From positions 1-64,000 of the IMG/VR virus record IMGVR_UViG_3300028048_000123: a stretch of 64,000 bases of DNA. One strand, 5' to 3'. Positions 1 to 64,000 of the stretch are shown here, piece by piece (the stretch's first letter is position 1; every line of letters starts with the position of its first letter). The position numbers and the translations under genes were made by a program. The DNA is from a virus (taxonomy: Duplodnaviria > Caudoviricetes). The notes under the pieces are model-generated. The model worked only from the letters and a program-made list of their open reading frames with translations. It did not search any database and was not told the origin of the DNA.

Positions 1-444
1 GCTTAAAATTATTGAATAAAGATCAGCCGAACTATCGCCAGGGTCAGGTAAGTCTTCTTCAAAAACTAATGAATACACATAATTTTTATCATGTAAATAA
101 CCAACTGTTTCACTAGCTTTTGCAGTAGCTTTATAAAGCTGTCTTGTTGCACAATATTGCAAAGCCATATCATAGTTTGCAACTGTTATATGATTTTGTT
201 CAGCTCAACCTTCAGCTGTATATAGTACAGGACCCTTTGCAGCGTATCTTTGTGAAGTCTTCCCAACATATTTTACAAAATCTGCTTGTGTGTTAAGCTC
301 TAAAACCCCATTAATATCAGCAGCTGCATCATATACATTAATATTATCTGACTTAACAAAGCCTGGTACAACTACCGAAAAGTTAGCATATGCGGCTACG
401 CCTGTTGTAGAAAGATCATATTCATTTATTATTACATTAGGCAT
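1..444 (-). CDS. Tail sheath protein (gp18-like), N-terminal part, runs off window; 1 TGA read as Trp
   Basis: Start MPNVIINEYDLST resembles sheath N-termini; frame stays open past TGA 205-207 to the window edge; follows a gp15-like gene as in T4. Confidence 0.6.
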
Positions 445-494
445 TTTTCTCTTTTTCTCCTTAAAATTTGATAGGTATTAACCTAAATATCAAT

Positions 495-504
495 TAATTT
501 AGCA
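495..504 (-). promoter_or_regulatory. Candidate late promoter TGCTAAATTA (sheath)
   Basis: Recurrent intergenic motif 50 nt before the ATG. Confidence 0.7.
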
Positions 505-522
505 AATGATTTGCTTTAATTA

Positions 523-1272
523 TTACTTTTTTGTCTGTATAATTTCTATGTCTTCAATTTCACCTGATTCAGTGATTTTATTACTAATTTCAATGCCACC
601 TTCAGTCTTACTTAGTAGCTCTAGCTCTGCTTCTGTAAAGACAGTATCATCATCAATAAACATTCTTCAATTTTTTCTATATGGAATGCTAAATAAGAAG
701 CCATCTTGAAGCTCAATAGATATTGTTCATCTAGTAAATTGACCTGTAAATAAACGCTCTGAAATATCACTTGTGTCAGATACAGTGCTTAGCACTCTAA
801 GGTTGGCTGTATGTTGTATAGCAAGATTATTATAAGGTATTTCAATGATTATCTTAGGATTATTTATTAGTTTAAATAAAAAATTTCTAAGATATTCATC
901 GCCCTCATCATAAGTTTTAGTATAAATATCTAGCTTATACTCAACTGTAACTGGAATAACATTCATTTGTATAGTATATTCTGCTTGCTTAGTGCTAATT
1001 GGATCAAGTAATCTACCATTTTTAGCATCAGCTAAACCTATCTTTAGCCCATCATATGACCTAGGTGTTTTAATATTTAAGTCAATATTAAAATCAGTAT
1101 TTCTAGATAGAGCAATAATAGGTAAGTTAGCAGGCTTATCACCAGAATCATCAGCTTTTGTTTCAAATAAACGCTTGCTTTCGTCTGGTTTTAACACTCT
1201 TAACTTAGACCCTTCTGGTATTCATTTTTTTAGTTTTGCAACTATAATGTCGTCATAATATCTAAAAGCCAT
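523..1272 (-). CDS. Tail completion/sheath stabiliser (gp15-like), 249 aa; 3 TGA-Trp
   Basis: ATG 1272 overlaps the upstream TAA; TGA at 1222, 727, 667; ends TAA 523. VIPVTVEYKLDIYTKTYDEGDEYL resembles the gp15 core; lies directly before the sheath. Confidence 0.55.
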
Positions 1273-1619
1273 TAATTATAATTCCTTTTATTTAGAGCAG
1301 TAAGTGCATTTATAAGTATCTTACTACCAAATAGTTTACTATTACCATATGTTATTAAGCTAGCTACTTTGTCAGATGCACTATCATGAAAGCTTATAAT
1401 TATATGGTCATTAGCATCCGTATTAAAATCTAGCTTATCAAGTAGTCTTAAACACATTAACTTTAAGCTTGTTTTATAGTTAGCTATAAGATAATTATTT
1501 AAGTCTATTTCAGGCTTACCAACTTTATATTTTAAAATATAAAATCTAGCAGCTCTGTATGCTGAGTCCTTTAATATATTTATATTAAAACCTGTACTAT
1601 TATCAACAATAAAAAACAT
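1272..1619 (-). CDS. Hypothetical protein in neck/tail cluster, 115 aa
   Basis: Intact ORF tightly coupled to its neighbours. Confidence 0.7.
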   Translation of the reverse strand: MFFIVDNSTGFNINILKDSAYRAARFYILKYKVGKPEIDLNNYLIANYKTSLKLMCLRLLDKLDFNTDANDHIIISFHDSASDKVASLITYGNSKLFGSKILINALTALNKRNYN

Positions 1620-1630
1620 ATAATCTATAT

Positions 1631-62060: not shown

Positions 62061-62070
62061 TAATTTAGCA
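62061..62070 (-). promoter_or_regulatory. Candidate late promoter (HNH-HTH gene)
   Basis: TGCTAAATTA 32 nt before the ATG. Confidence 0.65.
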
Positions 62071-62115
62071 CTAAAAATAACATTATTTATCACTTTGTAG
62101 CCACTTACTTGCCTC

Positions 62116-63249
62116 TTACTTAAGCTGTTCTGGAATTACGTTAGTAATATCACCACGCACAAGCATTACAGATCTATGATTACCACAGTTTAATGTGATA
62201 GCTTCATTCTTGCATGAGTCTAAAATAAACTTTAAGTCAGCTAAGTTAAGCTTCATTGCATAGCTTCCATCAATTATGCTACCTGTATTCGTTTTTACAT
62301 ATTCAACATTACCATTTTCATCTGTAATTACCATATCATCACCTGAGAATGTGCAAATGCCTTTAAGTTCAAATGTATTTAACTCTTTATTGCAGTTTTT
62401 ATTAAATGTAATGATACGGTTAATGGCATTAGATAGCTCTGTTGCTGAAACAATAACTCTATTTTGATAGCTGTCAGCCATAAATTGCTTAATTAAATTA
62501 ATAGGCCCTTGAATTTTTCTTAACATTACATCATCGCTATTTACAATAGCTGCCAAATAAGTTGTATCATTATAAAATACAGCTTTTGATTGCAAGAAGC
62601 CATTTGATAAAGCATCTGTACCATACATAAAATTAACATCTGTCTTGAATAGCTTAAATAATCTAACAATTCTGTCAGATAATAATAGCTTAATTGGTTT
62701 CTCTAACTTAAATGAATTAACACATGCACCAGTTGTAAAGGTAAAACAACCGTTTTCATCTAAATAATAAAGCTTTTGTAATTCATCAATTTTTGCAGGA
62801 TCAATTCCTTTTGTCTTTTGAATTTCTTTACTATTTACATTTAAAATGCTCATTAAAATATCGTTGCTAATATTCATATTAACAGTATCATTAACTAGCT
62901 TAATTACAGGTAACGTCATAAGCTTATCATTATCGTAGATTAATGGAATTTTATAACTGCTCTTACCTACTTTAATAGTTAGATCTTGTTCACTAGCTTC
63001 TACTTCAAAAGCATCAGCTGTAATACCAGTGACTAAGCCTAAAAAAGTATTTGCATTTACAACAGCTCTAAAGTTAATATCTTCTGTTAAATTATATTTA
63101 ACTGATACAAACCATTCTTTATTTGTTGCATTTAATGAAATAGCTTTATCTTTAGCTATAATCTCAACATTAGCTACATTCTTATCAGAACTAATAGCTG
63201 CTAAAATAGTATTAGCCACATCTTTAAATTCTTTTGTTTGAATAATCAT
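62116..63249 (-). CDS. dnaN: Bacterial-type beta sliding clamp (DnaN-like), 377 aa
   Basis: Three-domain length; LNATNKE, FTFTTG, ATELSNAINR and LKFILD resemble DnaN; next to the polymerase and near the clamp loader. Confidence 0.7.
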   Translation of the reverse strand: MIIQTKEFKDVANTILAAISSDKNVANVEIIAKDKAISLNATNKEWFVSVKYNLTEDINFRAVVNANTFLGLVTGITADAFEVEASEQDLTIKVGKSSYKIPLIYDNDKLMTLPVIKLVNDTVNMNISNDILMSILNVNSKEIQKTKGIDPAKIDELQKLYYLDENGCFTFTTGACVNSFKLEKPIKLLLSDRIVRLFKLFKTDVNFMYGTDALSNGFLQSKAVFYNDTTYLAAIVNSDDVMLRKIQGPINLIKQFMADSYQNRVIVSATELSNAINRIITFNKNCNKELNTFELKGICTFSGDDMVITDENGNVEYVKTNTGSIIDGSYAMKLNLADLKFILDSCKNEAITLNCGNHRSVMLVRGDITNVIPEQLK

Positions 63250-63269
63250 TGTTTATGCTCCTTCTATAT

Positions 63270-63278
63270 ATTATACAA
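63270..63278 (-). promoter_or_regulatory. Sigma70-like -10 element before the beta clamp
   Basis: TTGTATAATATA. Confidence 0.55.
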
Positions 63279-63280
63279 TA

Positions 63281-64000
63281 TTAATATTCTAAATCTATTC
63301 CTTCTGTGATAGCTTTGTAAATTGCTTCTTTTGGGAATTCTATGTGATTTTCATATATCTTTTCTAATGCCTCTTCTCTTGAAATTGGCGCAATGCCTTT
63401 CTTCTCATCGCCCTTTTCAAGCTTATCAAACTCAGCTCTGATAGAAACTGCTGCAGAATCAGCATACCAACGACTTACGTTGTAAGGGTCGCACTTCATA
63501 GCCGGAGCTGTAATACCAAGTTCAATAGCTGCATTAATCATAATTTCAGGAAGACGCTTTTCAACTTGTTCAGCATACTCTTCAGGACATTCAACTAAAA
63601 CTTCGTCGTGCACTGAAATAATCAAGTGTGTGTCCCATGCTCTTAATTGAGGATCTCTATAGATGTCAATCATAGCTTTTTTAGTAAGTGTTCCAGCAGA
63701 ACCTTGAATTAAAGCATTAAAACATTGTCTTTCTGCTTGTGCAATTCTACCAGTATTAGCTTGAATAATAACTGGTTCAAGCTTTTGTGTAGGCTCTTTA
63801 ACATACCAAACCTTTTTGCCATTTCTATATTCTTGGCGCATATGCTTTTCGCCATGTAAAGCTCTTATAGCCATTTTTGTATAACAAGCATTGCTGATTT
63901 CACCATTGCTTTTCCAAGATGGGTCTTTGCTTCTTTGCCATTCATCAGACCTTTGTATCTCTTCTGCTAATACTTCCTTCCAGTATTTAACTGAGTATGA
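63281..64000 (-). CDS. polA: Family A DNA polymerase, C-terminal part (continues beyond the window)
   Basis: RQCFNALIQGSAG and motif C VHDEVLVE; frame open to the window edge. Confidence 0.85.
   Translation of the reverse strand, partial: SYSVKYWKEVLAEEIQRSDEWQRSKDPSWKSNGEISNACYTKMAIRALHGEKHMRQEYRNGKKVWYVKEPTQKLEPVIIQANTGRIAQAERQCFNALIQGSAGTLTKKAMIDIYRDPQLRAWDTHLIISVHDEVLVECPEEYAEQVEKRLPEIMINAAIELGITAPAMKCDPYNVSRWYADSAAVSIRAEFDKLEKGDEKKGIAPISREEALEKIYENHIEFPKEAIYKAITEGIDLEY

Follow-up and report, generated by a model that had tools for sequence, protein, structure and literature searches.

TGA as a probable tryptophan codon, confined to certain gene blocks, in a large gut phage

Recoded phages already described and the contig under study

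Stop codons that have become sense codons are a known feature of gut phages, and it is among such phages that we place the DNA considered here: a window of 64,000 nucleotides, positions 1-64000 of a 76,464-bp linear viral contig (IMG/VR record IMGVR_UViG_3300028048_000123, hereafter G000), in which TGA almost certainly encodes Trp, as judged from alignments with related sequences. The phenomenon itself is already described, as the first-pass annotation of this window rightly remarked (Borges et al., bioRxiv 10.1101/2021.08.26.457843), and this phage adds another case. The additions are modest: a conserved TGA-free capsid and protease block, the lability of the code within one lineage, and a link between this lineage and an unusual two-hairpin suppressor tRNA. 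The case also offers a clean internal control in the form of paralogous genes, together with standard-code relatives nested among the recoded ones. Our preferred reading, to which we give as a whole a probability of roughly 0.85, is that TGA is a Trp codon through a partial reassignment of the phage's own, made in a standard-code host by means of a phage tRNA(UCA) and partitioned between blocks of genes.

In the survey of Borges et al., TGA occurs in 26-71% of the genes of phages that infect standard-code hosts and in ~90% of the genes of phages sharing the code of a recoded host, and suppressor tRNAs are often missed by standard tools (bioRxiv 10.1101/2021.08.26.457843). The phage studied here resembles the TGA-to-Trp phages of that survey (Jade, Sapphire and Agate clades) in several respects: (i) it has a large genome and comes from an animal gut; (ii) in-frame TGA is found in several late modules spread along the genome, while the replication genes are written in the standard code; and (iii) TGA has been dropped as a terminator, and close standard-code relatives exist. 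The preprint reportedly appeared later in Nat Microbiol (2022). Unlike the Jade-type phages, with their 'code change operon', our phage and its sister show neither release factor 1 (RF1) nor tryptophanyl-tRNA synthetase (TrpRS) in ~225 kb. It also keeps the major capsid and protease genes free of TGA, a point on which the preprint is silent, the capsid gene being absent from its text (bioRxiv 10.1101/2021.08.26.457843).

Two other groups of phages invite comparison. With the TAG-to-Gln crAss-like and Lak phages (Ivanova 2014; Yutin 2021, PMC7886860; Peters 2022, PMC9523058), whose recoding has been validated by metaproteomics, the likeness lies in a stop codon that becomes sense in late genes and in a phage suppressor tRNA; the codon, the residue and the lineages are different, and here all genes are encoded on a single strand, with a head module of the HK97 capsid/protease type. 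With the phages of hosts that natively use code 4 (Mycoplasma, Spiroplasma) our phage shares TGA as Trp and stops that are only TAA or TAG. In those phages TGA runs throughout the genome and dominates over TGG, whereas here it makes up 30% of the Trp codons and is missing from whole blocks of genes.

The identity of the contig as a phage is clear from PHROG matches to predicted head and packaging proteins, namely the major head protein (17787..19091), the prohead protease (19133..21010), the portal (22053..24005) and the large terminase (24034..26085); 7258..7980 matches a head-tail adaptor-like protein (phrog_211). CheckV puts the completeness of the contig at ~34%, so that the genome should be roughly 200 kb. 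Its G+C content is 32.6%, with a strong strand skew, and every credible gene of the window lies on the minus strand. The phage probably comes from the cattle gut, one bovine gut metagenome run holding 97% of the sampled words. A megablast search with 20 kb of the window gave no match among GenBank phages.

The residue encoded by TGA

When TGA is read as sense, minus-strand open reading frames (ORFs) tile 95.6% of the contig, and the window holds 60 in-frame TGA codons in 23 of about 70 genes, against 143 TGG; TGA makes up about 30% of the Trp codons, and about 33% of the genes carry it. These figures, which bear out the earlier estimate of ~60 TGAs in ~25 genes, leave out the TGAs in 5' extensions that overlap an upstream gene (codon 19 of 1631..3589, five in 28055..30115, two in 48255..48764 and one in 51194..51760). 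The claim that true gene ends are TAA or TAG held equally well: among the 69 complete genes of the window, 55 stop at TAA, 14 at TAG and none at TGA, and TGA ends none of 82 genes in the whole contig. A few TGAs near 3' ends, such as codon 330/338 of 26122..27138, could double as stops early in infection.

Comparison of the two codes, as the first-pass annotation had proposed, gave 95 ORFs under table 11 (mean 235 amino acids (aa), 25 of them ending in TGA), which merge into 78 ORFs (mean 300 aa) when TGA is sense. Table 11 cuts 23 window genes into pieces, including the portal, the terminase and the whole glycosyltransferase operon, so that annotation, clustering and host prediction of this rumen phage need TGA as Trp. 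Coding density falls only from 0.92 to 0.88 under table 11, with many fragments still longer than 60 aa, which speaks for the view that the TGAs are real stops, the contig being a decaying or chimeric one whose genes are pseudogenes, split or misassembled. We find this view scarcely credible: homology continues across the TGAs; of the 112 in-frame stops inside the homologous alignments with relatives 108 are TGA and only 4 are TAA or TAG, at least one of these in a spurious 5' extension; the genes affected include the essential portal and terminase; and contigs that were assembled separately, from other metagenomes, carry the same TGAs, so that they are not assembly errors.

The relatives used here are related viral contigs, fetched via the portal and other proteins and compared by tblastn; the closest, G001, is collinear with our contig at 81-90% nucleotide identity. 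Alignment was possible at 49 TGA sites, of which 45 belong to the window and 4 to 75897..76316, outside it; one or more relatives carry TGG or TGA at 40 of the 49. Of the 119 cells that face these sites, 32 hold W, 48 TGA, 9 F, 8 Y and 16 others; conversely, TGG-Trp codons of the window are matched by 37 TGAs in relatives. At 13 window TGA sites covered by the standard-code sequences G002 and L006 the residue is W in 9, F in 1, Y in 1 and H in 2, and both TGA sites of 45499..46320 are TGG-Trp in G002. Ranking the residues by a BLOSUM62-based likelihood places Trp first, with Tyr next and 43 log units behind when each site has one vote; with G002 and L006 only, Trp leads by 21 log units. Gly stands outside the top five, more than 35 log units behind. 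Across variants of the calculation the lead of Trp is 21-65 log units.

The internal controls on which the assignment to Trp was first based fared unevenly. Three TGAs of 26122..27138 face TGG-Trp of its paralogue 16800..17675 in a stretch of 51% identity, as had been stated. In the portal, codon 316 is TGG-Trp in four relatives, among them the standard-code G002, and TGA in four others (five rows each, as L006 and G002 may be one phage and L002 duplicates G001). The P-TGA-NKG motif of 57339..58415 matches PWNKG in three paralogous motifs. Of the control built on the paralogous leucine-rich-repeat (LRR) genes, the pairing of GE-TGA-TY with INWDY stands only if a one-residue shift is allowed, and the other two TGAs of the pair face V and Y at a variable position of the repeat. 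One control had to be given up: TN-TGA-ECIL of the family 2 glycosyltransferase (GT2) had been taken for an invariant Trp, and the residue at this column is I, F, Y or L in GT2 enzymes of solved structure, so that the position is hydrophobic or aromatic and not an invariant Trp.

This last site, together with the few TGA sites that face K, H, S or P in relatives, is what can be said for TGA encoding a residue other than Trp, such as Gly (the code 25 assignment), Cys or selenocysteine, or being read through according to context without a dedicated tRNA. Such an alternative is very improbable in view of the likelihood lead of Trp and the swapping of TGA and TGG in both directions. No Gly is found at the TGA columns among the aligned relatives, so the code 25 expectation fails, and 60 sites, with as many as 8 in one gene and an adjacent TGA-TGA pair in 11732..12382, are unlike selenocysteine insertion, which depends on a SECIS element.

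Partition of TGA between gene blocks

The TGA codons are not spread evenly over the window, whose features are as follows (- denotes the minus strand).

1..3983 (-): recoded block of genes with no function assigned (1..444, 523..1272, 1631..3589, 3474..3983)
1..444 (-): partial gene, 1 TGA
523..1272 (-): TGA at nt 1222, 727 and 667, still TGA in G001, G003 and G004
1272..1619 (-): zero Trp codons
1631..3589 (-): TGA at nt 3056, 2543 and 2201
3474..3983 (-): TGA at nt 3747, TGG in G001, L091 and L093
3993..7980 (-): TGA-free virion genes, a 1075-aa protein (4 TGG) and the adaptor-like 7258..7980 (6 TGG)
8221..14288 (-): recoded glycan and LRR block with GT8, GT2-Stealth and BspA-type LRR genes
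8221..8964 (-): GT8 gene, 6 TGA
8968..9843 (-): 3 TGA
9853..11745 (-): GT2-Stealth gene, 5 TGA at nt 11650, 10870, 10693, 10594 and 10444
11732..12382 (-): 2 TGA in adjacent codons 168-169 (window 11876-11881), where G003 has Pro-TGA
12445..13365 and 13365..14288 (-): BspA-type LRR paralogues with 2 and 1 TGA
14405..22033 (-): TGA-free block (24 TGG, 0 TGA) of small genes and the genes in the next three lines
15995..16822 (-): methyltransferase-like gene, TGA-free
16800..17675 (-): homing-endonuclease-like gene, 7 TGG and 0 TGA
17787..19091 and 19133..21010 (-): major head protein and prohead protease, both TGA-free
22053..38631 (-): recoded packaging and late block
22053..24005 (-): portal, TGA at nt 23058 (codon 316)
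24034..26085 (-): large terminase, TGA at nt 25954, 25852, 25579 and 24568
26122..27138 (-): DUF7487 endonuclease-like gene, 7 TGA and 1 TGG
27128..27943 (-): 2 TGA
28055..30007/30115 (-): 1 real TGA, at nt 28649
30010..32820 (-): 1 TGA
32933..33418 (-): TGA-free
33432..34973 (-): 0-1 TGA
34975..36165 (-): 1-2 TGA
36179..37525 (-): AAA-like gene, 1 TGA
37540..38631 (-): 2 TGA
38720..64000 (-): replication and recombination arm, running on to contig position 75783
45499..46320 (-): first exception in this arm, 273 aa, no Pfam match, TGA at codons 44 and 218 (nt 46189 and 45667)
57339..58415 (-): second exception, HNH/NUMOD3 homing endonuclease, 8 TGA and 0 TGG
61037..62029 (-): third exception, HNH-type endonuclease paralogue with helix-turn-helix domains, 1 TGA (nt 61718) and 1 TGG

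The replication arm encodes a topoisomerase, peptide deformylase, SbcC/SbcD, a PD-(D/E)XK nuclease, the clamp loader, a RecA-like protein, the sliding clamp, a split PolA and DnaB. With the three exception genes set aside, none of its 96 Trp codons is TGA (P = 3e-20 at the share found in the left arm), as against 48 TGA and 80 TGG in the left arm (0/96 vs 48/128, Fisher P = 9e-7). In the recoded left-arm genes TGA amounts to 52% of Trp. Within the left arm, all 24 Trp codons of the block at 14405-22033, where the capsid and protease genes lie, are TGG (P = 3e-8), as are all 10 of the block at 3993-7980 (P = 7e-4 at the share of the recoded genes).

The same holds in relatives. Summed over seven recoded ones (G001, G003, G004, L003, L005, L090 and L092), the capsid gene has 1 TGA among ~27 Trp codons and the protease gene is also almost TGA-free, while the portal and terminase genes of these relatives have ~50% TGA; this suggests that the capsid and protease block resists recoding across the clade. 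Two readings are at hand: the block may be translated at a stage when UGA is not yet decoded, or suppression may be incomplete and its cost avoided by the proteins that are translated most heavily. This resistance bears on the question of whether recoding serves as a timing switch or imposes a cost that strongly expressed genes escape. The TGG-only endonuclease gene 16800..17675 lies in a segment that is missing from G001 and may be a recent arrival, and it therefore does not decide between the two.

The sister phages, otherwise collinear, have no nucleotide match in a variable segment, window 9929-17694 against G001 51216-64690. It measures 7.8 kb in the window and 13.5 kb in G001, and takes in the greater part of the glycosyltransferase/LRR operon as well as the small genes that lie upstream of the capsid gene.

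Genes resembling homing endonucleases stand at the extremes of Trp codon use (7 TGG and 0 TGA, 1 TGG and 7 TGA, 0 TGG and 8 TGA), which suggests that mobile genes retain the codon usage of the genome or block they came from. Another such gene (64391..65416) sits between two pieces of the family A DNA polymerase, contig 63281..64273 with the C-terminal polymerase motifs and contig 65912..67882 with the exonuclease and the start of the polymerase domain.

The base that follows the codon was also compared. T follows 17% of sense TGAs, 26% of TGGs (P = 9e-5) and 48% of the real stops; set against all codons, the difference for sense TGA is marginal (P = 0.056). The rarer T after sense TGA is a weak hint of competition with the release factor.

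Standard-code relatives, the two-hairpin tRNA and the origin of the code

Some relatives have not been recoded. G002 has equal coding density under both tables and no in-frame TGA in its homologues, and 3 of its 27 genes end in TGA; L006, L091 and L093 behave in the same way, and in all of these relatives TGG is found at TGA sites of the window. In the capsid tree these standard-code relatives nest among the recoded ones, L093 being sister to the recoded L092 (support 92/93) inside a clade supported at 99/98, and the topology suggests that the code is labile within this lineage.

A candidate for the decoding agent comes from the sister phage. G005, a contig of 66.9 kb, was found via the rightmost large protein of our contig (79% identity); since it comes from the same metagenome as G001, the two probably belong to the same sister phage. 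It carries an array of ~30 tRNAs, including a tRNA-Trp(CCA), and 4 kb away from it, among unrelated proteins, a separate tRNA of 95 nt (G005 55693-55787, equal to L033:15693-15787 on the minus strand), which is missed by ARAGORN at default settings and scores 49 bits with Rfam. The anticodon loop, C-C-U-C-A-A-A, gives the anticodon UCA.

A search with its anticodon arm brought out a family of two-hairpin tRNAs, present in G009 and on some 20 large viral contigs (loci: G005 55693-55787; L044:8466-8562 on the plus strand, in G009; L086:925-1002, plus strand; and L059-L085). The family has (i) a Trp-like acceptor stem with A1-U72, G73 and an encoded CCA end; (ii) an anticodon arm, GCGGU-CUUCAAA-ACCGU, that reads UCA; and (iii) a second hairpin with a covarying stem of 4-7 bp (15 distinct stems in 17 sequences), whose conserved loop, N-UCCAAA, is the anticodon loop of ordinary tRNA-Trp (CCA). 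L086, reached via homologues of the 69-aa gene next to the tRNA, carries a canonical copy in the corresponding place, behind that 69-aa gene as in G005; the other contigs are too short or belong to other phages. An exact-pattern scan for the G005 variant hit G005 only. Among contigs of the source run, one of 987 bp covers the flanks of the G005 tRNA and its last 22 nt and then drops below the 80% limit, which leaves the tRNA body unreadable. A pattern search of metagenome-assembled genomes (MAGs) with related capsid genes gave one ordinary 74-nt tRNA(UCA), on another contig of a Waltera bin. A literature search returned no publications on the two-hairpin tRNA; pairs of phage tRNA(UCA) and TrpRS from two phages insert Trp at UGA in vitro and in E. 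coli (bioRxiv 10.1101/2025.10.30.685624).

Taken with the partition, these results fit the following scheme. In this phage of ~200 kb from the cattle gut only TAA and TAG end genes and TGA is a Trp codon. The replication and recombination genes and the major capsid and protease block would be translatable by an unmodified standard-code host; the packaging, glycosyltransferase, LRR and other late genes and the homing endonucleases would reach full length only once UGA is decoded as Trp, and the partition may in this way serve the timing of the infection. The decoding agent would most likely be a phage suppressor tRNA with anticodon UCA, encoded in the part of the genome, about two thirds, that the assembly lacks, and a tRNA like that of the sister phage, in which a UCA arm is joined to a copied CCA loop of tRNA-Trp, would be charged by the host TrpRS.

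Some of our results weigh against this scheme. ARAGORN and Rfam found no tRNA in the window or the rest of the 76-kb contig, which is ~34% complete, and none on the relatives' contigs, among them that of the sister phage (G001, 82 kb; G002, G003 and G004). RF1 (PF00472) and TrpRS (PF00579) have no match in the ~225 kb of G000, G001 and G005, the genomes being incomplete. The tRNA copy of G005 differs from the consensus of its family at four otherwise conserved points (C33, the loop GUCCACA, C73 and no encoded CCA) and may be impaired. The late genes are not uniformly recoded, and with TGA-free capsid, protease and adaptor genes a simple switch between early and late is incomplete as an explanation. 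Lastly, related contigs have been binned with MAGs of Lachnospiraceae, Bacilli and Bacteroidales, although the binning of phage contigs is unreliable.

A rival view is that the host itself, for instance a Mollicutes-like gut lineage, uses code 4 and that the phage simply follows it, needing no machinery of its own. The contig with its low G+C of only 32.6%, its lack of tRNA, RF1 and TrpRS and its avoidance of TGA as a terminator would suit such a host, as would the binning of one related contig with a Bacilli MAG. We nonetheless consider this improbable: none of the 96 Trp codons of the replication arm or the 24 of the capsid block is TGA; TGA occurs in ~33% of the genes, not in the ~90% found in phages that share a recoded host's code; the sister and related phages carry a tRNA(UCA) of their own besides tRNA-Trp(CCA); and the same clade contains standard-code relatives in which TGA still ends genes (3 of 27). 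The absolute character of the partition, the low share of TGA (30% of Trp codons), the tRNA(UCA) of the relatives and the nesting of standard-code relatives among recoded ones all favour a switch driven by the phage.

On the preferred reading, that of a reassignment by the phage itself, a more specific proposal is possible, which we put forward as speculative. The two-headed tRNA alone might flip UGA, its UCA arm reading the codon and its CCA-loop hairpin allowing the host TrpRS to charge it, with no phage TrpRS or RF1 required and with our phage's copy in the unassembled part of the genome; suppression would be incomplete in the face of the host release factor 2, so that the capsid and protease genes, as the late genes translated most heavily, would be kept TGA-free, and the code would flip on and off between close relatives.

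Apart from the two-hairpin tRNA, the tRNA arrays of G005 (42.5-52 kb; L033:2565-11741), G009 (L044) and G007 (L045) hold many odd tRNAs: those for Val and Asp measure 88-90 nt and have long extra arms, and several for Asn, Cys, Phe and Lys measure 116-134 nt, with inserts of 25-50 nt called by ARAGORN. G010, a relative of 104 kb, has two drum RNAs (RF02958, 90-94 bits; L049:4046-4155 and 4830-4941, minus strand) and one skipping-rope RNA (RF02924, 59 bits; L049:33-125, minus strand), all three among tRNA genes.

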